Below are positions 2,198 through 64,000 of a DNA stretch of 64,000 nucleotides, piece by piece; within the stretch, counting starts at the first letter, position 1, and each line of letters begins with the position of its first letter. The stretch comes from Eledone cirrhosa (lineage: Eukaryota). The DNA is taken from the NCBI GenBank assembly GCA_964016885.1, contig OZ024743.1:307520001-307584000 (forward strand). Direction: 5' to 3'. The position numbers and the translations under genes are program-made. Below the pieces are notes generated by a model that was not told the origin of the DNA, searched no databases, and saw only the letters and a list, made by a program, of their open reading frames with translations.

Positions 2198-2410
2198 GCA
2201 TCTTGTTCAGGTAGTCTTTCAGGTTGTTTTTCATGAAGCCTGTGGCTCTTATTATTATTCAGATCAGCTCAGCGTTATCTCCCAAAGGTGCCAGTTCCTT
2301 CTCATGTCATACATGAGGGCTTGGTATTTTGTGGTCTTATCTATTTCAAGGTATATTCAGGCCAGTCATTTGGGACACTTATCTCGATGACCATCACTTT
2401 CTGCTCTTCC
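2198..2410 (-). mobile_element. Fragment of a restriction-like endonuclease (RLE) domain from an R4/Dong-type non-LTR retrotransposon
   Basis: Minus strand reads, across frameshifts, [12 protein letters not shown]...[19 protein letters not shown]...IIIRATGFMKNNLKDYLNKM. This matches the RLE pattern (I-D/E-x-x-x-P, K-x-x-K-Y, I-I-G-A-T-G-like). Confidence 0.6.
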
Positions 2411-3375
2411 TCTCCAGTATGTGTTCTCTCATGTATAGTTAAGTCACAAGAGACAGAGAATGTTTTTTCACATTCCTTACATTTATATGGTTTCTCTCCA
2501 GTATGTGTTCTCTCATGTATAGTTAAGTCACAAGAGACAGAGAATGTTTTTTCACATTCTTTACATTTATATGGTTTATCTCCAGTATGTGTTCTCTCAT
2601 GTATAGTTAAGTCACAAGAGACAGAGAATGTTTTTTCACATTCCTTACATTTATATGGTTTCTCTCCAGTATGTGTTCTCTCATGTATAGTTAAGTCACA
2701 AGAGACAGAGAATGTTTTTTCACATTCTTTACATTTATATGGTTTATCTCCAGTATGTGTTCTCTCATGTATAGTTAAGTCACAAGAGACAGAGAATGTT
2801 TTTTCACATTCTTTACATTTATATGGTTTCTCTCCAGTATGTGTTCTCTCATGTATAGTTAAGTCACAAGAGACAGAGAATGTTTTTTCACATTCCTTAC
2901 ATTTATATGGTTTCTCTCCAGTATGTGTTCTCTCATGTATAGTTAAGTCACAAGAGACAGAGAATGTTTTTTCACATTCTTTACATTTATATGGTTTCTC
3001 TCCAGTATGTGTTCTCTCATGTATAGTTAAGTCACAAGAGACAGAGAATGTTTTTTCACATTCCTTACATTTATATGGTTTCTCTCCAGTATGTGTTCTC
3101 TCATGTATAGTTAAGTCACAAGAGACAGAGAATGTTTTTTCACATTCCTTACATTTATACGGTTTCTCTCCAGTATGTGTTCTCTCATGTATAGTTAAGT
3201 CACAAGAGACAGAGAATGTTTTTTCACATTCCTTACATTTATATGGTTTCTCTCCAGTATGTGTTCTCTCATGTATAGTTAAGTCACAAGAGACAGAGAA
3301 TGTTTTTTCACATTCCTTACATTTATATGGTTTCTCTCCAGTATGTGTTCTTTCATTTGTAGTTAAGTCACCAGA
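2341..3375 (-). CDS. Open frame with 11 tandem near-identical C2H2 zinc fingers (candidate terminal exon or pseudogene)
   Basis: The 84-bp repeat translates on - as [28 protein letters not shown] x11. There is no ATG at its start. It is bounded upstream by ttctctTAG (stop or splice acceptor) and ends at TAG 2343-2341. The + strand ORF 2288..3379 is its antisense shadow. Confidence 0.75.
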
Positions 3376-7399: not shown

Positions 7400-7590
7400 T
7401 TTAAAACATTCTTCGCTAGCCTGCCTGAGATCCTCCTTCTCATGTGTACCCATAGTTTGCATTTGGGACATAGAATGAAATTTCTACCTACTCCTTTCCT
7501 GCACACTAAATGAAGCCATTTTCCTGGGGGCGAACCCTGGGCCCTGTTTTCCTTTTTACTTACTAGAACTTTAGTCTTTAGACTTGAAGC
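7400..7590 (-). mobile_element. RTE LINE internal fragment (Cys-rich insert region)
   Basis: SLKTKVLVSKKEN...GKWLHLVCRKGVGRNFILCPKCKLWVH. Homologous to 37778-38080. Confidence 0.7.
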
Positions 7591-8305
7591 ATTGTGGTAT
7601 AAGAAATACAAATATAACTAGGAAATAAGTTTAATTATTTGGAAGCCAAACAAGTGTGAGATTATAAGTGCCAAGGTAATAAGAATTAGAGAAAATAGGA
7701 CAAAAGAACCGAGAAAAGAGTAAGAATGGTATAATTTTACTTTAGAACTCTTCAGCTGTGTCAAATACATGACAGCCTCCCTTATGTTGGTTTCACGATA
7801 AAATACACACAATAGGCTTGAGATCGTATGTACATGAGAGGTAAGTCCCAGGCACATTTGAATGGTCTGTAACGCCGCTTGAGTACTGACTCAGTCTGTG
7901 AAGATCCGTCAAACCCATACTAGCAGGGAAAACGGACGTTAAATGATGACGATATATTTAGACATGGAAATCTTTCAATACACAAACATATGTGCGTATA
8001 TGACATTTTCTCAAACCTTCCTCCACCCACAAACCTTTGTGGCTAATTAATAAAACAATTATTATCATTTCTATTTTAAAAAGTCATTAAATAAGTTAAT
8101 GGCATTTTGTTTATCAAAAATACATTTTTCAATTATATATTTTAGTTTCGTGACTTTTCATTATTTGACGAAGTTAATCTTAACGTAAAACATATTTGGA
8201 AAAAAAAGCAAACCTGAAACTTACTTATTTAAAATGTCAAGAAACATAAGAGATGAATTAATGTGATTTAGTTGAATATTTTTCAATAAATAAAAATAAA
8301 AATAT

Positions 8306-24404: not shown

Positions 24405-24641
24405 TGACGCTTGTTATTGAAAAACAGAATATTAGAGGAAATGTCGAGGCATTTGTTTGTGCCTCAGCTGATTTTTACCTATTGATTTCACATTTCTGTA
24501 TTCTATCCCGAATATCGCAATTGACAACGAAAGTTACGGTTATACAAAGGCTATTCATTGTAGTGCTACATAAAACAGAAAATTAGAAATTTGATAAATT
24601 GTTTTTTTTTCCTTCATTCTACTGGCATTAGTCAGCCAGTC

Positions 24642-24818
24642 ATGTCGTCAACTTGGATTTCTGGACTGTTTACAGAACAAACGAAATTAAAGGCTTGCCG
24701 TTACCTTCTTCATCATTATCTCGGCGAATTACTCAAAGACAATGTATCACTTGAACAGCTTAGCGTTGATATATTCAAAGGGAAAGGAACAATTGAACAT
24801 CTTAGTCTCGACGAAGAG
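24642..24818 (+). CDS. ATG2: Autophagy-related protein 2, coding exon 1 (Chorein_N)
   Basis: MSSTWISGLFTEQTKLKACRYLLHHYLGELLKDNVSLEQLSVDIFKGKGTIEHLSLDEE resembles the ATG2 N-terminus (ACRYLL..YLG..L...SLEQLS.D). Donor GAG|gtaacg, phase 0. Confidence 0.93.
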
Positions 24819-47313: not shown

Positions 47314-47482
47314 TTTATCAACCAATGGTTGAAGACTTACTCAGTACCTGTGGAGTTAGTAAGCAGTATTATAGATGAAATAACAGTTTCTATACCATGG
47401 TCAACGTTATTAGGAAGCAGTACCCTTTTTGAAGTTCATGGATTGAAATTGGAACTCAGACCAAAATGCCGCTCTGAAAATG
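47314..47482 (+). CDS. ATG2: ATG2 coding exon 2
   Basis: ttgcag|TTT...AAT G|gtacgt. FINQWLKTYSVPVELVSSIIDEITVSIPWSTLLGSSTLFEVHGLKLELRPK (Chorein_N IPW..LL...EV.GL). Phase 0 to 1. Confidence 0.93.
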
Positions 47483-47810: not shown

Positions 47811-48542
47811 CACACACACACATACACACATGGAAAATAGACAGTGATGTTGATGATATATGACAAGCTGCCACTCAGTTTCCGTCTACTATATTTTCCC
47901 TCACAAGACATTGGTTAACTCAAGACTATAGCAGAATGATAGACGACAATGGGGTAGAACTTGTCAAATTGGACCGAGGTAACAATGTTTCCATTGGTCG
48001 TTCCATGTGTAATACTATTTACTGGTTGCAACTCCTGGCAGAAAGAACATGAAATAAAGTGTCTTGCTCAAGGACATAATGCATCACTCAGTCCAGGAAT
48101 TGAACTCGCAACCTCATGGTTGTGAATCCAATTCTTTAACCACTAAACCATACGCTTTCACTGGTGGAACTAAACCTGAAAACATGTGGTTGCAAAGTGA
48201 ACTCTTTAAAGACACAGGTACACCTATACCTGTGTGTTTATTGTGTGTGTTCTATAAAAAGTTATTTTTAGTGGTTCTAAATAATTACTTAACCGTTTAG
48301 CATCTACATTACTCTATATCTATTCTTTTATTTTCGCAGTTAAGGCTTCACATAATATCGAATCTATGAGATTTTGATATTATTTATTTTAAGAACAATA
48401 CCTTAACGTCAGTATGAGTGGCCGGTTATGGCTGGTTTGAACAGAAAGAGGAGTGAGAATTCTGGCTGGATACAGCTAGTTTAAATGCTAAAGGGTTAAC
48501 CTGGTCTAACACTCCCTTCCAAAACTATTCTTATACTTCTAG

Positions 48543-48689
48543 GGCCTTCATTTGAAGAAATGGTTTCTAGTATAACCAGTATGACATCTAGCTTGCAGAT
48601 GGCAGAAGAGTTGCTTCGAAATGAAAAGATTTCTGAGGAAAACACAAAATATAATGGAGCCAACACCTTTGCTGATACTATTGATTCTG
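48543..48689 (+). CDS. ATG2: ATG2 coding exon 3 (not in the ORF track)
   Basis: cttctag|GG...TCT G|gtcagt. (G)PSFEEMVSSITSMTSSLQMAEELLRNEKISEENTKYNGANTFADTIDS matches ATG2 SMTSS.Q.A.E.L...FA.TI. Phase 1 to 1 joins exons 2 and 4 in frame. Confidence 0.9.
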
Positions 48690-49248
48690 GTCAGTGATTT
48701 ATTGATACTATTGATTCTGGTCAGTGATTGATACTTATTAATTCTGGTCAGTGATTTATTGATACTATTGATTTTGGTCAATGATTGATACTTATTAATA
48801 CTATTGATTCTGGTCAGTGATTGATACTTATTGATTCTGGTCAGTGATTTATTAATACTATTTATTCTGGTCAGTGATTTATTGATACTATTGATTCTGG
48901 TCAGTGATTGATACTTATTGATTCTGGTCAGTGATTTATTAATACTATTGATTCTGGTCAGTGATTTATTGATACTATTGATTCTGGTCAGTGATTGATA
49001 CTTATTGATTCTGGTCAGTGATTTATTGATACTATTGATTCTGGTCAATGATTGATACTTATTAATACTATTGATTCTGGTCAGTGATTGATACTTAATA
49101 CAATTGATTCTAGTCAATGATTTATTGATACTATTGATTCTTGTCATTGATTGATACTTATTGGTATTGGTCAGTGATTGATACTTATTGATACTATTGA
49201 TTCTCGTCAGTGATTTATTGAGACTATTGATTCTGGTCAGTGATTTAT
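48674..49248 (+). repeat. Minisatellite (27/30/36-bp units) built from the exon 3 end and its splice donor
   Basis: Unit gatactattgattctg|gtcagtgatttatt. The first copy is the real exon/intron junction. Confidence 0.92.
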
Positions 49249-50777
49249 TTTACTGAACATAACTTTTTTTTTCTGTTGCACCTAACCCACATTGTAAAGT
49301 GCTAGTTCTTGTGTCATCATAAAATCCACACAGTCCACTCTGTAAAGGAGTAATGCTACTACCATGAAAAATGCACCCAGTTTACACTTTCAGGTTTTAG
49401 TGATAGTGCCAGGACAAAATGGACCCAGTACAAGCTGTGAAGTGGTTGGTGTTAGGAAGGGCATCCAGCCATAGAAACCATGCCAAAAGGGAACATATGA
49501 GCAAGGCATATTCATTTGACTTATCTAGCCTCTGAAGATGACCACCTGTCTAGCTCATCCAAGCATGGAAAATAGATGTAAAACTCAGATGATGATTATC
49601 TGTCCATGAAAATATTGTATATACAGACAAGCTGTTTACATTTATCTAGAGGAAGGGCATCCAGTTGTAGAAAGCTTGCCAAACAAAAAGGTTGAGAGGA
49701 CCGTTCAGTTATATCAAAGACATGACAGCCTCCTTAGTGTTGGTGACTTACACAATAAATGCACCCAGTACATGATGTAAAGTGGTTGATGATAGGAAAG
49801 GCATCCAGCCATAGAAAGCTTACCAAACAAAGGGTTGGGAGAACTCTTCAGTTGTGTCAAAGACATGGCAACCTCCCTAGTGCTGGTGATCTCCACAATA
49901 AATGCATCCAGCTAAAGAAAGCTTGGCAAACAAAAGGCTAAGAGGATACAGTTATGTCAAAGACATGACAACTTCTCCTATGCATTCGGTAGAATGTGAG
50001 ACAGCATGTAAGTGAGATGCAGACCTCCAGCCTGTCTGAGAGGTCAGTAGTCCCACTTCAGTACTGACTTGGTCTAAGTAGATTTTTGCTGGCAGGGAAA
50101 GCAGATGTCAAATAATGATGTTGATGATGAAACAATTTTGGCTTAAAATCTATAGATATATTCTTTAGTAGAGTATATGTTGAAGTGTTCCTTGAGCCTA
50201 GAAGCTCATCAGGCCAAAGCTCATACTGGTTTCATCGCCCTTAAGTGTCTAAGGATACAAGACTCCCTACTGGACCAGATGCCAATCCATTTTTTTTGCT
50301 GAGATGACTGGAGAAATGTGAAATAAAGGGCTTTGCTCAAGAGCATAATGCATTCTCCAGTCTGGAAATTGAACCTATGACCTTTCAACCATGAGGTCAA
50401 CTCTAGTTTTTCATTTCTTAGGTGACAAAGAAATATGATGTGGAGAGATGCTGTGCTAAAAAAGTCTTATCCAACCCATTCAAGCTTAGAATAGTGGAGT
50501 AAAATGATGATGATGGTGATGGTGGTGGAGTTGTTGTGGTGGTTGTTTATATTAAATTTTTTCTGGCTGTATATATTCAGTATAAAATAAGTACATCATA
50601 TCACTACAAGTTTTAAGAAGCAACTAAAAAGATTGGAGCCAAGAAAGGACCCCTTGATGTGTATGAAACCTGTCACGAAGTCTGCTAGGTTAACTCCTGA
50701 TTTTGTCAGGGAAATCACCTTAAAATACTTATGTGTTCTGTTTATATTTGTTTTACTTTTCTTTTACTTCATTCCAG

Positions 50778-50883
50778 TTTTATCACGTGTGAAAATAAGT
50801 GTTCATGACATATCTATTTGCCTGGATCACATCCTAAAGGATTCTGCCAATCAAAAGGCAAGACTTGAGATGAGAATACAACG
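50778..50883 (+). CDS. ATG2: ATG2 coding exon 4
   Basis: ttccag|TT...CG|gtaaga. (V)LSRVKISVHDISICLDHILKDSANQKARLEMRIQ(R). Phase 1 to 2. Confidence 0.9.
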
Positions 50884-52041: not shown

Positions 52042-52240
52042 AATGGACTTTTTTGATGACATGGCAGTAAATGAGAGTGTTGCAACTGATTCCTCTGGCA
52101 GGAAAAAATGGGAACCATCAGCCATTGCTTGCAAAAATTTCAAGTTGTCTGGAGTGACATTTCACATTGAAGAATGTGTAGTTCATCCTGATGATTTATA
52201 CAACACATCACACAGCAGTTCTAGTGACTCATCAACTCAA
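52042..52240 (+). CDS. ATG2: ATG2 coding exon 5
   Basis: ttactag|A ATG GAC...CAA|gttggt. MDFFDD...EPSAIACKNFKLSGVTFHIEE...STQ. Phase 2 to 0. Confidence 0.85.
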
Positions 52241-54261: not shown

Positions 54262-54459
54262 TTGTTTGAATCTGCTCACAATTCTCCTCCCCTATGCAAA
54301 TCTAGTACATTGAATAGTCCAGATGTACTGACACAACAACCACTCTCCTTGAATACAATCACATCCAGCGGTATACCTTCTGTCCATGTTGCTGCTATTT
54401 CTGGAACTACCGAGGTTAAAATGAAAATGAAACAAAATGAAGCTGTTGCCGGACCAAAG
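54262..54459 (+). CDS. ATG2: ATG2 coding exon 6
   Basis: tttcag|TTG...AAG|gtaaac. ...VHVAAISGTTEVKMKMKQNEAVAGPK matches the ATG2 KQNE..PG.K motif. Phase 0 to 0. Confidence 0.88.
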
Positions 54460-55089
54460 GTAAACAAAACCCACATCGTGTAACTCTAATATCATCATCA
54501 TCACTGTTTAACGTCCATTTTTCCATGCTAGCATGGGTTAGATGAGTTGTTCCGTTTTCAAACAAGTTCACTCAAGTGGCTGTGTCTTACTCATAAAGAA
54601 CTGTTTCTGACTTGGTTTCTATGGCTGGATACCCTTCATAATACCAACAACATTTAAAGCATGGACTGGGTGCTTTTTATCATGGCACCAAAATGACCAA
54701 CTGACAGGTTCAACTGGGTGTTTTTTGTTGTCTCACCAACACAACCTTTATACAGGGTGGACTGGGTGCTTTTGTAACTCTAATATAAATTCTGATTATT
54801 TACTTATTATTTTATTGGTTTCAGTTATTAGACAGTGACCATACTGGAGCGTCACCTTAAAGTGATTTACTAGATCATATCAATCACAGCACTTGTCAAG
54901 TCTGTCACTTATTTTATCAATCTCTTGTTGCCAAACTGCTATGTTATCAGAGCTAAAGATTCAAACACACACACTTATGTGACAGCCTTGTTAGAAGAGA
55001 AAGCAGATGTTAAACAATGCTGCTGATGATGATCTGATAAACACAGTTTTTCTCTATGAATGGCTATAAAATGTTTAAAATTAACCTGA

Positions 55090-58000
55090 AAAAGTTTGAA
55101 AGATAGGAGGTGAGCATGCCTTGCTGGATGTGTAGTTTGTGTCTGTAAAGGTTTGAAAGATAGGAGGTGAGCATGCCTTGCTGGATGTGTAAAGTTTGTG
55201 TCTGTAAAGGTTTGAAAGATAGGAGGTGAGCATGCCTTGCTGGATGTGTAAAGTTTGTGTCTGTAAAGGTTTGAAAGATAGGAGGTGAGCATGCCCTGCT
55301 GGATGTGTAAAGTTTGTGTCTGTAAAGGTTTGAAAGATAGGTGAGAATTGCCCTGCTGGATGTGTAAAGTTTGTGTCTGTAAAGGTTTGAAAGATAGGTG
55401 AGCATGCCTTGCTGGATGTGTAAAGTTTGTGTCTGTAAAGGTTTGAAAGATAGGTGAGCATGCCTTGCTGGATGTGTAAAGTTTGTGTCTGTAAAGGTTT
55501 GAAAGATAGGTGAGCATGCCTTGCTGGATGTGTAAAGTTTGTGTCTGTAAAGGTTTGAAAGATAGGAGGTGAGCATGCCTTGCTGGATGTGTAAAGTTTG
55601 TGTCTGTAAAGGTTTGAAAGATAGGAGGTGAGCTTGCGTTGCTGGATGTGTAAAGTTTGTGTCTGTAAAGGTTTGAAAGATAGGAGATGAGCATGCCCGG
55701 CTGGATGTGTAAAGTTTGTGTCTGTAAAGGTTTGAAAGATAGGAGGTGAGCATGCCTTGCTGGATGTGTAAAGTTTGTGTCTGTAAAGGTTTGAAAGATA
55801 GGTGAGCATGGCCTGCTGGATGTGTAAAGTTTGTGTCTGTAAAGGTTTGAAAGATAGGTGAGCATGCCCTGCTGGATGTGTAAAGTTTGTGTCTGTAAAG
55901 GTTTGAAAGATAGGTGAGCATGCCCTGCTGGATGTGTAAAGTTTGTGTCTGTAAAGGTTTGAAAGATAGGAGGTGAGCATGCCTTGCTGGATGTGTAAAG
56001 TTTGTGTCTGTAAAGGTTTGAAAGATAGGTGAGCATGCCCTGCTGGATGTGTAAAGTTTGTGTCTGTAAAGGTTTGAAAGATAGGTGAGCATGCCTTGCT
56101 GGATGTGTAAAGTTTGTGTCTGTAAAGGTTTGAAAGATAGGAGGTGAGCATGACTTGTTGGATGTGTAAAGTTTGTGTCTGTAAAGGTTTGAAAGATAGG
56201 AGGTGAGCATGCCTTGCTGGATGTGTAAAGTTTGTGTCTGTAAAGGTTTGAAAGATAGGAGGTGAGCATGCCCTGCTGGATGTGTAAAGTTTGTGTCTGT
56301 AAAGGTTTGAAAGATAGGAGGTGAGCATGCCTTGCTGGATGTGTAAAGTTTGTGTCTGTAAAGGTTTGAAAGATAGGTGAGCATGCCTTGCTGGATGTGT
56401 AAAGTTTGTGTCTGTAAAGGTTTGAAAGATAGGAGGTGAGCATGCCCTGCTGGATGTGTAAAGTTTGTGTCTGTAAAGGTTTGAAAGATAGGTGAGCATG
56501 CCTTGCTGGATGTGTAAAGTTTGTGTCTGTAAAGGTTTGAAAGATAGGAGGTGAGCATGCCCTGCTGGATGTGTAAAGTTTGTGTCTGTAAAGGTTTGAA
56601 AGATAGGTGAGCATGCCTTGCTGGATGTGTAAAGTTTGTGTCTGTAAAGGTTTGAATGATAGGTGAGCATGCCTTGATTCATGTGTAAAGTTTGTGTCTG
56701 TAAAGATTTGAAAGATAGGTGAGCATGCCTTGATGGATGTGTAAAGTTTGTGTCTGTAAAGGTTTGAAAGATAGGAGGTGAGCATGCCTTGCTGGATGGG
56801 TAACGTTTGTGTCTGTAAAGGTTTGAAAGATAGGTGAGCATGCCCTGCTGGATGTGTAAAGTTTGTATCTGTAAAGGTTTGAAAGATAGGAGGTGAGCAT
56901 GCCCTGCTGGATGTGTAAAGTTTGTGTCTGTAAAGGTTTGAAAGATAGGAGGTGAGCATGCCTTGCTGGATGTGTAAAGTTTGTGTCTGTAAAGGTTTGA
57001 AAGATAGGAGGTGAGCATGCCTTGCTGGATGTGTAAAGTTTGTGTCTGTAAATGTTTGAAAGATAGGTGAGCATGCCTTGCTGGATGTGTAAAGTTTGTG
57101 TCTGTAAAGGTTTGAAAGATAGGAGGTGAGCATGCCTTGCTGGATGTGTAAAGTTTGTGTCTGTAAAGGTTTGAAAGATATGAGGTGAGCATGCCTTGCT
57201 GGATGTGTAAAGTTTGTGTCTGTAAAGGTTTGAAAGATAGGTGAGCATGCCTTTCTTCATGTGTAAAGTTTGTGTCTGTAAAGGTTTGAAAGATAGGTGA
57301 GCATGCCTTGATGGATGTGTAAAGTTTGTGTCTGTAAAGGTTTGAAAGATAGGAGGTGAGCATGCCCTGCTGGATGTGTAAAGCTTGTGTCTGTAAAGGT
57401 TTGAAAGATAGGTGAGCATGCCTTGCTTCATGTGTAAAGTTTGTGTCTGTAAAGGTTTGAAAGCTAGGTGAGCATGCCTTGATGGATGTGTAAAGTTTGT
57501 GTCTGTAAAGGTTTGAAAGATAGGAGGTGAGCATGCCCTGCTTGATGTGTAAAGTTTGTGTCTGGAAAGGTTTGAAAGATAGGAGGTGAGCATGCCTTGC
57601 TGGATGTGTAAAGTTTGTGTCTGTAAAGGTTTGAAAGATAGGAGGTGAGCATGCCTTGCTGGATGTGTAAAGTTTATGTCTGTAAAGGTTTGAAAGATAG
57701 GAGGTGAGCATGCCCTGCTGGATGTGTAAAGTTTGTGTCTGTAAAGGTTTGAAAGATAGGAGGTGAGCATGCCTTGCTGGACGTGTAAAGTTTGTGTCTG
57801 TAAAGGTTTGAAAGATAGGAGGTGAGCATGCCTTGCTGGATGTGTAAAGTTTGTGTCTGTAAAGGTTTGAAAGATAGGAGGTGAGCATGCCTTGCTGGAT
57901 GTGTAAAGTTTGTGTCTGTAAAGGTTTGAAAGATAGGAGGTGAGCATGCCCTGCTGGATGTGTAAAGTTTGTGTCTGTAAAGGTTTGAAAGATAGGAGGT

Positions 58001-61000
58001 GAGCATGCCCTGCTGGATGTGTAAAGTGTGTGTCTGTAAAGGTTTGAAAGATAGGAGGTGAGCATGCCTTGCTGGATGTGTAAAGTTTGTGTCTGTAAAG
58101 GTTTGAAAGATAGGTGAGCATGCCTTGCTTCATGTGTAAAGTTTGTCTGTAAAGGTTTGAAAGATAGGTGAGCATGCCTTGATGGATGTGTAAAGTTTGT
58201 GTCTGTAAAGGTTTGAAAGATAGGAGGTGAGTATGCCCTGCTGGATGTGTAAAGTTTGTGTCTGTAAAGGTTTGAAAGATAGGTGAGCATGCCTTGATGG
58301 ATGTGTAAAGTTTGTGTCTGTAAAGGTTTGAAAGATAGGAGGTGAGCATGCCTTGATGGATGTGTAAAGTTTGTGTCTGTAAAGGTTTGAAAGATAGGAG
58401 GTGAGCATGCCTTGCTGGATGTGTAAAGTTTGTGTCTGTAAAGGTTTGAAAGATAGGTGAGCAAGCCTTGATGGATGTGTAAAGTTTGAGTCTGTAAAGG
58501 TTTGAAAGATAGGTGAGCATGCCTTGATGGATGTGTAAAGTTTGTGTCTGTAAAGGTTTGAAAGATAGGAGGTGAGCATGCCCTGCTGGATGTGTAAAGT
58601 TTGTGTCTGTAAAGGTTTGAAAGATAGGAGGTGAGCATGCCTTGCTGGATGTGTAAAGTTTGTGTCTGTAAAGGTTTGAAAGATAGGTGAGCAAGCCTTG
58701 ATGGATGTGTAAAGTTTGTGTCTGTAAAGGTATGAAAGATAGGAGGTGAGCATGCCCTGCTGGATGTGTAAAGTTTGTGTCTGTAAAGGTTTGAAAGATA
58801 GGTGAGCATGCCTTGCTGGATGTGTAAAGTTTGTGTCTGTAAAGGTTTGAAAGATAGGAGGTGAGCATGCCCTGCCGGATGTGTAAAGTTTGTGTCTGTA
58901 AAGGTTTGAAAGATAGGAGGTGAGCATGCCTTGCTGGATGTGTAAAGTTTGTGTCTGTAAAGGTTTGAAAGATAGGTGAGCATGCCTTGCTGGATGTGTA
59001 AAGTTTGTGTCTGTAAAGGTTTGAAAGATAGGAGGTGAGCATGCCTTGATGGATGTGTAAAGTTTGTGTCTGTAAAGGTTTGAAAGATAGGAGGTGAGCA
59101 TGCCTTGCTGGATGTGTAAAGTTTGTGTCTGTAAAGGTTTGAAAGATAGGAGGTGAGCATGCCTTGATGGATGTGTAAAGTTTGTGTCTGTAAAGGTTTG
59201 AAAGATAGGAGGTGAGCATGCCTTGCTGGATGTGTAAAGTTTGTGTCTGTAAAGGTTTGAAAGATAGGAGGTGAGCATGCCTTGATGGATGTGTAAAGTT
59301 TGTGTCTGTAAAGGTTTGAAAGATAGGAGGTGAGCATGCCTTGCTGGATGTGTAAAGTTTGTGTCTGTAAAGGTTTGAAAGATAGGAGGTGAGCATGCCT
59401 TGCTGGATGTGTAAAGTTTGCGTCTGTAAAGATTTGAAAGATAGGAGGTGAGCATGCCTTGCTGGATGTGTAAAGTTTGTGTCTGTAAAGGTTTGAAAGA
59501 TATGAGGTGAGCATGCCCTGCTGGATGTGTAAAATTTGTGTCTGTAAAGGTTTGAAAGATAGGTGAGCATGCCTTGCTGGATGTGTAAAGTTTGTGTCTG
59601 TAAAGGTTTGAAAGATAGGAGGTGAGCATGCCCTGCTGGATGTGTAAAGTTTGTGTCTGTAAAGGTTTGAAAGATAGGAGGTGAGCATGCCTTGCTGGAT
59701 GTGTAAAGTTTGTGTCTGTAACGGTTTGAAAGATAGGTGAGCATGCCCTGCTGGATGTGTAAAGTTTGTGTCTGTAAAGGTTTGAAAGATAGGTGAGCAT
59801 GCTCTGCTGGATGTGTAAAGTTTGTGTCTGTGAAGGTTTGAAAGATAGGTGAGCATATCTTGCTGGATGTGTAAAGTTTGTGTCTGTAAAGGTTTGAAAG
59901 ATAGGAGGTGAGCATGCCCTGCTGGATGTGTAAAGTTTGTGTCTGTAAAGGTTTGAAAGATAGGTGAGCATGCCTTGCTGGATGTGTAAAGTTTGTGTCT
60001 GTAAAGGTTTGAAAGATAGGAGGTGAGCATACCCTGCTGGATGTGTAAAGTTTGTGTCTGTAAAGGTTTGAAAGATAGGAGGTGAGCATGCCCTGCTGGA
60101 TGTGTAAAGTTTGTGTCTGTACAGGTTTGAAAGATAGGAGGTGAGCATGTCCTGCTGGATGTGTAAAGTTTGTGTCTGTAAAGGTTTGAAAGATAGGAGG
60201 TGAGCATGTCCTGCTGGATGTGTAAAGTTTGTGTCGGTAAAGGTTTGAAAGATAGGAGGTGGGCATGCCTTGCTGGATGTGTAAAGTTTGTGTCTGTCAA
60301 GGTTTGAAAGATAGGAGGTGAGCATGCCTTGATGGATGTGTAATGTTTGTGTCTGTAAAGGTTTGAAAGATAGGAGGTGAGCATGCCTTGCTGGATGTAT
60401 AAAGTTTGTGTCTGTAAAGGTTTGAAAGATAGGAGGTGAGCATGCCTTGCTGGATGTGTAAAGTTTGTGTCTGTAAAGGTTTGAAAGATAGGATGTGAGC
60501 ATGCCTTGCTGGATGTGTAAAGTTTGTGTCTGTAAAGGTTTGAAAGATAGGTGGTGAGCATGCCTTGCTGGATGTGTAAAGTTTGTGTCTGTAAATGTTT
60601 GAAAGGTAGGAGGTGAGCATGCCTTGCTGGATGTGTAAAGTTTGTGTCTGTAAAGGTTTGAAAGATATGAGGTGAGCATGCCCTGCTGGATGTGTAAAGT
60701 TTGTGTCTGTAAAGGTTTGAAAGATATGAGGTGAGCATGCCCTGCTGGATGTGTAAAGTTTGTGTCTGTAAAGGTTTGAAAGATAGGTGAGCATGCCTTG
60801 CTTCATGTGTAAAGTTTGTGTCTGTAAAGGTTTGAAAGATAGGAGGTGAGCATGCCCTGCTGGATGTGTAAAGTTTGTGTCTGTAAAGGTTTGAAAGATA
60901 GGAGGTGAGCATGCCTTGCTAGATGTGTAAAGTTTGTGTCTGTAAAGGTTTGAAAGATAGGAGGTGAACATGCCTTGCTGGATGTGTAAACTTTGTGTCT

Positions 61001-64000
61001 GTAAAGGTTTGAAAGATAGGAGGTGAGCATGCCCTGCTGGATGTGTAAAGTTTGTGTCTGTAAAGGTTTGAAAGATAGGAGGTGAGCATGCCCTGCTGGA
61101 TGTGTAAAGTGTGTGTCTGTAAAGGTTTGAAAGATAGGAGGTGAGCATGCCTTGCTGGATGTGTAAAGTTTGTGTCTGTAAAGGTTTGAAAGATAGGTGA
61201 GCATGCCTTGCTTCATGTGTAAAGTTTGTCTGTAAAGGTTTGAAAGATAGGTGAGCATGCCTTGATGGATGTGTAAAGTTTGTGTCTGTAAAGGTTTGAA
61301 AGATAGGTGAGCATGCCTTGATGGATGTGTAAAGTTTGTGTCTGTAAAGGTTTGAAAGATAGGTGAGCATGCCTTGATGGATGTGTAAAGTTTGTGTCTG
61401 TAAAGGTTTGAAAGATAGGAGGTGAGCATGCCTTGCTGGATGTGTAAAGTTTGTGTCTGTAAAGGTTTGAAAGATAGGTGAGCAAGCCTTGATGGATGTG
61501 TAAAGTTTGAGTCTGTAAAGGTTTGAAAGATAGGTGAGCATGCCTTGATGGATGTGTAAAGTTTGTGTCTGTAAAGGTTTGAAAGATAGGAGGTGAGCAT
61601 GCCCTGCTGGATGTGTAAAGTTTGTGTCTGTAAAGGTTTGAAAGATAGGAGGTGAGCATGCCTTGCTGGATGTGTAAAGTTTGTGTCTGTAAAGGTTTGA
61701 AAGATAGGTGAGCAAGCCTTGATGGATGTGTAAAGTTTGTGTCTGTAAAGGTATGAAAGATAGGAGGTGAGCATGCCCTGCTGGATGTGTAAAGTTTGTG
61801 TCTGTAAAGGTTTGAAAGATAGGTGAGCATGCCTTGCTGGATGTGTAAAGTTTGTGTCTGTAAAGGTTTGAAAGATAGGAGGTGAGCATGCCCTGCTGGA
61901 TGTGTAAAGTTTGTGTCTGTAAAGGTTTGAAAGATAGGAGGTGAGCATGCCTTGCTGGATGTGTAAAGTTTGTGTCTGTAAAGGTTTGAAAGATAGGTGA
62001 GCATGCCTTGCTGGATGTGTAAAGTTTGTGTCTGTAAAGGTTTGAAAGATAGGAGGTGAGCATGCCTTGATGGATGTGTAAAGTTTGTGTCTGTAAAGGT
62101 TTGAAAGATAGGAGGTGAGCATGCCTTGCTGGATGTGTAAAGTTTGTGTCTGTAAAGGTTTGAAAGATAGGAGGTGAGCATGCCTTGATGGATGTGTAAA
62201 GTTTGTGTCTGTAAAGGTTTGAAAGATAGGAGGTGAGCATGCCTTGCTGGATGTGTAAAGTTTGTGTCTGTAAAGGTTTGAAAGATATGAGGTGAGCATG
62301 CCCTGCTGGATGTGTAAAATTTGTGTCTGTAAAGGTTTGAAAGATAGGTGAGCATGCCTTGCTGGATGTGTAAAGTTTGTGTCTGTAAAGGTTTGAAAGA
62401 TAGGAGGTGAGCATGCCCTGCTGGATGTGTAAAGTTTGTGTCTGTAAAGGTTTGAAAGATAGGAGGTGAGCATGCCTTGCTGGATGTGTAAAGTTTGTGT
62501 CTGTAAAGGTTTGAAAGATAGGTGAGCATGCCCTGCTGGATGTGTAAAGTTTGTGTCTGTAAAGGTTTGAAAGATAGGTGAGCATGCTCTGCTGGATGTG
62601 TAAAGTTTGTGTCTGTGAAGGTTTGAAAGATAGGTGAGCATACCTTGCTGGATGTGTAAAGTTTGTGTCTGTAAAGGTTTGAAAGATATGAGGTGAGCAT
62701 GCCCTGCTGGATGTGTAAAGTTTGTGTCTGTAAAGGTTTGAAAGATAGGTGAGCATGCCTTGCTGGATGTGTAAAGTTTGTGTCTGTAAAGGTTTGAAAG
62801 ATAGGAGGTGAGCATACCCTGCTGGATGTGTAAAGTTTGTGTCTGTAAAGGTTTGAAAGATAGGAGGTGAGCATGCCATGCTGGATGTGTAAAGTTTGTG
62901 TCTGTACAGGTTTGAAAGATAGGAGGTGAGCATGTCCTGCTGGATGTGTAAAGTTTGTGTCTGTAAAGGTTTGAAAGATAGGAGGTGAGCATGTCCTGCT
63001 GGATGTGTAAAGTTTGTGTCGGTAAAGGTTTGAAAGATAGGAGGTGAGCATGCCTTGCTGGATGTGTAAAGTTTGTGTCTGTCAAGGTTTGAAAGATAGG
63101 AGGTGAGCATGCCTTGATGGATGTGTAATGTTTGTGTCTGTAAAGGTTTGAAAGATAGGAGGTGAGCATGCCTTGCTGGATGTATAAAGTTTGTGTCTGT
63201 AAAGGTTTGAAAGATAGGAGGTGAGCATGCCTTGCTGGATGTGTAAAGTTTGTGTCTGTAAAGGTTTGAAAGATAGGATGTGAGCATGCCTTGCTGGATG
63301 TGTAAAGTTTGTGTCTGTAAAGGTTTGAAAGATAGGTGGTGAGCATGCCTTGCTGGATGTGTAAAGTTTGTGTCTGTAAAGATTTGAAAGGTAGGAGGTG
63401 AGCATGCCTTGCTGGATGTGTAAAGTTTGTGTCTGTAAAGGTTTGAAAGATATGAGGTGAGCATGCCCTGCTGGATGTGTAAAGTTTGTGTCTGTAAAGG
63501 TTTGAAAGATATGAGGTGAGCATGCCCTGCTGGATGTGTAAAGTTTGTGTCTGTAAAGGTTTGAAAGATAGGTGAGCATGCCTTGCTTCATGTGTAAAGT
63601 TTGTGTCTGTAAAGGTTTGAAAGATAGGAGGTGAGCATGCCCTGCTGGATGTGTAAAGTTTGTGTCTGTAAAGGTTTGAAAGATAGGAGGTGAGCATGCC
63701 TTGCTAGATGTGTAAAGTTTGTGTCTGTAAAGGTTTGAAAGATAGGAGGTGAACATGCCTTGCTGGATGTGTAAACTTTGTGTCTGTAAAGGTTTGAAAG
63801 ATAGGAGGTGAGCATGCCCTGCTGGATGTGTAAAGTTTGTGTCTGTAAAGGTTTGAAAGATAGGAGGTGAGCATGCCCTGCTGGATGTGTAAAGTTTGTG
63901 TCTGTAAATGTTTGAAAGATAGGTGAGCATGCCTTGCTTCATGTGTAAAGTTTGTGTCTGTAAAGGTTTGAAAGGTAGGAGGTGAGCATGCCCTGCTGGA
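55090..64000. repeat. Intronic satellite, 56/59-bp monomer, ~150 copies, running off the window
   Basis: aaagtttgtgtctgtaaaggtttgaaagatagg(agg)tgagcatgcc(t/c)tgctggatgtgt. Diagnostic variants recur at ~2.8-3.1-kb spacing. Confidence 0.98.

Follow-up and report, generated by a model that had tools for sequence, protein, structure and literature searches.

A minisatellite seeded by the exon-3 splice donor of ATG2 in an invertebrate genome

The third coding exon of ATG2 ends within a minisatellite whose first unit carries the authentic 5-prime splice site. With a probability of roughly 80%, we interpret this arrangement as a locus-specific minisatellite over the exon-3 donor, which is spliced at the first donor and is tolerated as a near-neutral product of repeat slippage, and which does not act as a regulator. 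The observations under this reading are the anatomy of the array, its uniqueness in the genome, splicing of the dominant RNA form at the first donor, and a form with one extra unit in a relative. Positions are given on the window, i.e., the whole stretch of 64,000 nt that was analysed, at 307,520,001-307,584,000 of contig C4, unless another locus is named. The features are as follows.

24640 to 24818 (approximate): ATG2 coding exon 1 in the window
47314 to 47482, plus strand: ATG2 coding exon 2, chorein-N / VPS13_N-like region (phmmer, Pfam, spliced contig)
48543 to 48689, plus strand: ATG2 coding exon 3, 147 nt long, starting and ending in phase 1 (tblastn with P0002 at 80% identity, spliced contig)
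48673 to 49249, plus strand: minisatellite with 18 downstream donor copies in units of 27, 30, 33, or 36 nt (TRF, parsing, genome-wide 20-mer search)
48687 to 48695, plus strand: authentic 5-prime splice site CTG/GTCAGT, 7.6 bits (the loose end of a contig past 48689 is the exon 4 start)
48695 to 48697, plus strand: in-frame TGA, two codons past the authentic donor (exon frame GGT CAG TGA)
50778 to 50883, plus strand: ATG2 coding exon 4, acceptor partner of the exon-3 donor (contig end, P0002 alignment)
52042 to 52240, plus strand: ATG2 coding exon 5 (spliced contig, P0002 alignment)
54262 to 54459, plus strand: predicted ATG2 coding exon 6 (in frame with exon 5 on one side and, past the satellite, with exon 7 on the other)
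55086 to 64000, plus strand: first part of the 59-bp-unit satellite of predicted ATG2 intron 6, in which most units have a sense-strand AG/GTGAG donor-like site

The first-pass annotation, made from the sequence of the window, had named the gene as ATG2, and this assignment was upheld. Exon 2 matched human ATG2A (PDB 8kbx_B) with a phmmer E-value of 4.5e-4, and gave weak matches to Pfam VPS13_N and ATG2_CAD, both below the cut-off. P0002, a related protein with VPS13_N and ATG2_CAD, could be aligned to five exons of the window (64-89% identity), and the alignment crosses the exon 3/4 junction with no insertion. A strict search gave five ATG2_CAD matches on the same strand 275-310 kb further on, and the exons between the window and this region were placed by tblastn with four more distant ATG2 proteins. 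Numbering the exon as the third was right when coding exons are counted (approx. 24640-24818, 47314-47482, and 48543-48689). At least 20 more ATG2 exons lie downstream of the TGA at 48695.

The donor-seeded array is real, as first described. It was reported by TRF as a single array call at 48673-49249 with a period of 30, 19.0 copies, 79% matches, and a score of 654. Donor-like positions number 19, beginning with the authentic one at 48689, continuing with 48719 and 48746, and ending with 49235; GT is preserved at all of them (19/19). About 18 tandem decoy donors had been described after exon 3, with the last 16 nt of the exon and the donor as the first repeat unit, and both points agree with our counts, the exon-derived part being measured at 16-17 nt of the exon 3 end. 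Most downstream units were said to keep the donor unchanged, and 12 of the 18 downstream copies do match the authentic donor over positions -3 to +6; copies 15-18 are degenerate. Spacing from copy to copy is 30 nt nine times, 27 nt five times, 36 nt three times, and 33 nt once. The triplet spacing of the earlier description thus stands, but its wording, that lengths of 27/30/36 are "mostly" multiples of three, was too cautious, since all 18 spacings are, including the one of 33. As the exon frame reads GGT CAG TGA, use of any downstream copy would bring the TGA at 48695-48697 into the mRNA, and the premature stop foreseen for every downstream donor is indeed in place. On the minus strand of 48674-49248 one frame is open across the whole array and reads as a low-complexity repeat peptide; most likely it is a by-product of the triplet unit lengths.

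A donor-spanning 20-mer gave 11 exact matches in the 3.0-Gb genome and its reversed control gave 0. All 11 matches fall within the array, which is therefore locus-specific and not due to chance. The array as a member of a dispersed repeat was ruled out by the same genome-wide confinement of the 20-mer. Short-read contigs from two DNA-type runs, which may derive from the assembly's own sample, showed 0 differences over 49068-49463; the first two thirds of the array lie outside this interval.

Splicing at the array could be followed in run X4. This run is not on record as RNA; it is one transcript-type run of unspecified tissue and condition, and we consider it transcript-derived because it holds a spliced contig and has zero depth at two unique intron positions. 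Exons 2, 3, and 5 are in register in the contig, which is 6,868 nt long at a depth of 26.6, and its loose end past 48689 corresponds to the opening 30 nt of exon 4 (50778 onward). Out of 762,587 records in X4 this contig is the only one aligning on 48502-49290, so the dominant mRNA uses the first donor. Use of the most upstream site, 48689 joined to 50778, is thereby seen in 1/1 transcript-type contig, which represents the dominant form only, and the proposal that the first of many identical donors is chosen was borne out to that extent. No extended-exon contig was found on 48502-49290 in X4, where the search covers this 1 transcript-type contig; since contigs lose rare variants, X4 is silent on minor use of copies 2-3. 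The authentic donor, at 7.6 bits, stands at the 24th percentile of 160 called donors when scored with a matrix trained on this genome. The array folds slightly more stably than its shuffles, with a z of -2.88 and 2/200 shuffles equally good. The predicted accessibility of donor 1 (mean unpaired 0.27-0.31 over three window sizes of the prediction) is the same as that of most copies (~0.26-0.36), copies 17 and 19 being lower, and RNA structure as the basis of first-donor choice was ruled out on these grounds.

The arrangement is already known from several human genes. In human F7, a 37-bp VNTR of intron 7 has its first monomer across the exon-intron boundary, and pseudo-donors follow (Borensztajn et al., 2006, PMC1557585). 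The minigene experiments described there found the pseudo-sites functional, but only the most upstream intact one was used, with no other variants in 50 further clones; site choice was not explained by the reading frame, and the mechanism was tested in mammalian cells only (PMC1557585). According to the comparison given in the same paper, IFI6 (6-16) has 25 pseudo-sites in intron 2, of which the nearest two are also used, CBS intron 13 has 15-20 units of 31 bp with two pseudo-sites also used, and the minisatellites of LMNB2 (100 bp) and PDGF intron 4 (81 bp) are spliced at the authentic site only (PMC1557585). CBS alleles range from 16 to 21 (PMC2630376). By its testable defining features the ATG2 array is an F7-type donor minisatellite. 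It shares with F7 a first monomer over the exon-intron boundary, identical pseudo-donors at about 30-40-nt spacing (12/18 identical and GT in 19/19 for ATG2), and the most upstream site seen in use, for ATG2 from 1 transcript-type contig of the dominant form. It differs from F7, with its 5-9 sites, in having 19 sites and mixed 27/30/33/36-nt units, and in belonging to an invertebrate genome. Donor reiteration in the range of 10-25 copies is common to the ATG2, IFI6, CBS, LMNB2, and PDGF arrays, CBS being near-equal in unit size and count; unlike IFI6 and CBS, where the next two copies are used, ATG2 has only the first donor in the X4 contig, which shows the dominant form. No paper on the ATG2 exon-3 array locus was found in literature searches, whose scope left subscription literature outside. 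The idea that the array may serve as a natural test of 5-prime splice-site selection was correct, but in human F7 such an experiment had already been carried out on the array in 2006 (PMC1557585).

A second likeness is to latent 5-prime splice sites, consensus intronic donors behind an in-frame stop, as the ATG2 copies are; more than 98% of human latent donors lie behind such a stop (Nevo et al., 2012, PMC3510495). Unlike the latent sites treated in that paper, those of ATG2 are tandem copies of the authentic site, and the suppression model comes from mammalian cells (PMC3510495). Latent donors can be activated by heat shock in mammalian cells (PMC3510495), which would suit the idea that splicing at donors 2 and 3 of ATG2 occurs at a low level, perhaps raised by stress, and that the resulting stop-containing mRNA brings about a mild and non-adaptive loss of ATG2 expression that depends on array length and is not a switch. 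We consider such leakage unlikely. Copies 2 and 3 are identical to an authentic donor which is itself moderately strong (24th percentile), and the use of the two nearest copies in IFI6 and CBS (PMC1557585), together with an association of the CBS VNTR with lower activity, as given by a cited title and a table row, would be in line with it; against it stand X4, where no such contig occurs, though contigs miss rare forms, and the uniform 50 further F7 clones of the minigene experiments (PMC1557585).

For the tolerated slippage product, a course of events can be proposed. An initial duplication, between short similar words at the end of the exon and the beginning of the intron, would have produced a 36-nt unit with a second donor. 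Slippage or unequal exchange may then have amplified the unit in this lineage, 6- or 9-nt blocks being lost between internal microhomologies. Each of the 18 units can be aligned to a single 36-nt form, and the substitutions amount to 18 over 546 nt; the 30-mers are this form minus a 6-nt block, the 27-mers minus a 9-nt block, and the 33-mer minus 3 nt. The lost blocks sit between short internal repeats, one mirroring the Asp-Thr-Ile-Asp codons of the exon end. Unit lengths are multiples of three because 6- and 9-nt blocks drop out between these microhomologies, and selection is unneeded; the frame of the units is irrelevant to the protein because the TGA precedes all copies. Selection for frame preservation was ruled out on both counts. 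Exact donor copies make up 8/9 of the half proximal to the exon vs 4/9 of the distal half, and we regard the good state of the exon-near copies as the usual edge decay, not as a knock-out of the likeliest competitors, since it is the near copies that are least mutated. The donor 9-mers, 30% of the array, hold 9/18 substitutions (P = 0.056, with non-independent cells), which hints weakly at selection against decoys. The spliceosome would keep to the most upstream of the identical donors, as in human F7, so that the copies would stay latent. By the 50-55-nt rule, nonsense-mediated decay acts on a stop that precedes later exon junctions by a sufficient distance. An mRNA spliced by leakage at copy 2 or 3 would contain the TGA and would be cleared by this decay; we propose that clearance lowers the cost of leakage, and that the array may persist for this reason.

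A stage of this history is visible in a close relative, organism B (run X5), which is a few percent diverged from the window in exons. The alignment of a 363-nt X5 contig to 48504-48725 shows a 6-nt insertion after 48698; of 8 further differences, 6 are located. The contig contains exon 3, the donor, one extra 36-nt unit, and a second donor-like site, and after 48725 it departs from the window sequence into the end of an interspersed repeat of ~370 bp; the sequence past this point matches 2/190 extracted loci. Because the contig has one extra unit and then the interspersed repeat, the first duplication is common to both organisms and the uninterrupted 19-site array is not. Presence in related species, asked for at the outset, was thus found for the first duplication but not for the uninterrupted array, and the element as a whole is not conserved in this one relative, whose contig ends in the interspersed repeat. 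Organism B could have more units beyond that repeat, given that array interiors are missing from the DNA-run contigs of organism A too. The contig does run unbroken through the unit, which suggests that organism B is without a near-identical long array. Two of the three listed RAD runs, X6 and X7, gave 0 reads at the array and hence carry no information on polymorphism.

The frequency of such arrangements was estimated from 179 kinesin and myosin motor-domain matches. Filtering at 4 bits and for uniqueness removed 19 donors and 20 acceptors, and 160 donors and 159 acceptors were kept. Donor calls were automatic, and at least one (L082) is wrong. An in-frame stop occurs within 6 nt of 32/160 sampled donors and within 30 nt of 74/160; with these values, and with the share of human latent donors behind a stop (PMC3510495), the early stop in ATG2 is no special sign of a switch. 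In 40/160 a GT site of equal or greater strength lies in the next 600 nt. By TRF, none of the 160 sampled donors was spanned by an array of at least three copies, one was spanned by 2.4 copies (L102), and 2/159 acceptors were spanned. Two matches of the donor 16-mer in the sample looked chance-like on inspection, and the first-unit test was also passed by 365 of 10,929 control intronic GT sites (3.3%). The 160-donor sample gave no sign that donor-spanning arrays are enriched genome-wide. Within ATG2 itself 2/24 donors are spanned, exon 3 and a 91-bp array at predicted exon 9, as well as 1/24 acceptors. When the ascertained exon-3 case is left out, 1/183 donors are spanned (0.5%, 95% interval 0.01-3%), and the local minisatellite density, 65 arrays of at least three copies in 292 kb, gives an expected rate of 0.3-0.7%. 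As the two values agree, the arrangement is uncommon yet expected many times per such genome. Two donor-spanning arrays in one gene is on the high side compared with 0/160 in the sample, and this speaks against the reading as a tolerated repeat.

The sample gave two further observations. Firstly, minisatellite edges in the first 60 nt past the 160 sampled donors (L056-L190) numbered 10, whereas the seven bins that follow average 3.1 (Poisson P = 0.0015), and the 10 include some degenerate microsatellites and one miscalled donor; there was no pile-up before acceptors (4 vs 3.6). Secondly, repeats span the acceptor ahead of a kinesin exon in two near-identical loci, L073 and L075 (C22, C1636), and the strong acceptor copies number 2 vs 5, so that copy number differs between the loci.

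Several other repeats lie in and near ATG2. The satellite of predicted intron 6 totals 171.7 kb (~172 kb), at approx. 307,575,086-307,746,787 of the contig, i.e., from window position 55086 through L016-L031 to L032:~2787. It consists of 56-59-bp units in ~2,900 copies with 92-95% matches and no N, and the reading frame continues across it from predicted exon 6 to predicted exon 7. A satellite 26-mer occurs in the genome 681 times in forward and 0 times in reverse orientation; 678 of these occurrences were counted within the extracted stretches, and the satellite appears to be locus-specific on this word count. About 2,700 units have an AG/GTGAG site of 8.1-9.5 bits vs 8.1 for the real exon-6 donor. 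These sites start ~640 nt past that donor and are, because of this distance, a different test from neighbours at 30 nt. The 6,868-nt X4 contig continues for 5.8 kb beyond exon 5, and this is consistent with removal of the predicted intron-6 satellite by splicing. The satellite is arguably more unusual than the exon-3 array.

The second donor-spanning minisatellite of ATG2 (L032:7660-8191, a 91-bp unit x 5.8) covers the end of predicted exon 9 (7587-7709) and its donor; three identical and one weakened donor copy lie downstream, with a stop right past the authentic donor. At L040:7402-7485 a 28-bp triplication (x 3) spans the acceptor before an ATG2 exon, its last copy being in frame with the exon. 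A degenerate ~21-bp array lies directly past the predicted exon-10 donor (L033:3396-4003), and its words resemble the intron side of that donor with the first G changed. Shortly downstream of ATG2 there is a ~66-kb array of a 10-bp unit (L047:1324 to L053:7168). On the minus strand of the window, 2410-3375 holds an 84-bp repeat (x 11.5, 98% match). At 28 codons, its period is that of a single C2H2 zinc finger; read by eye, the repeat may be a zinc-finger coding array.

A bolder reading would join several of these repeats, with ATG2 as a splice-decoy hotspot (exon 3 being followed by 18 donor copies, exon 9 by four, and the 172-kb intron-6 satellite holding ~2,700 donor-like sites of equal or greater strength) in which heat or starvation shifts splicing onto stop-preceded copies and repeat length tunes autophagy capacity between individuals. 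We hold this to be very unlikely.

Regulated poison-exon and AS-NMD switches, e.g., those of SR-protein genes, are deeply conserved and measurably used. The first-pass annotation had suggested such a role for the exon-3 array, a poison-splicing/NMD switch of ATG2 tunable by copy number, and as an adaptive device this suggestion was not supported; we give it hardly any credence. In principle a stop-containing isoform is possible in ATG2 as in these switches, with the TGA at 48695 standing ahead of every copy, at least 20 exons and hence many exon junctions downstream, and 12/18 copies perfect. Unlike the SR-protein poison exons, the ATG2 array differs in a close relative, the contig of organism B being without the uninterrupted form, and no alternative product with an extended exon occurs among the X4 contigs, in which rare forms would be lost. 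The early in-frame stop is generic among donors, the triplet unit lengths lie behind that stop and are explained by microhomology, and the other boundary arrays of the same gene have non-triplet units of 91 and 28 bp. Least probable of all is that the array was inflated or invented by the assembler: none of the available reads or contigs crosses all of it and the two RAD runs gave 0 reads, but its units differ from one another by substitutions and indels that form a higher-order pattern, the DNA-run contigs match 49068-49463 exactly, and the relative shares the first duplication.

If it were true that repeat length tunes stop-containing splicing of ATG2, the array would give a core autophagy gene an inherited means of adjustment; no observation points there, and the regulatory reading is without support from the data examined. 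The likely case is the ordinary one, that of a minisatellite tolerated over a donor. As such it offers an invertebrate example suggesting that the F7 rule, by which the first of identical donors wins, applies also outside mammals, and the history of the array is caught between two relatives, one with one extra unit and the other with 18.
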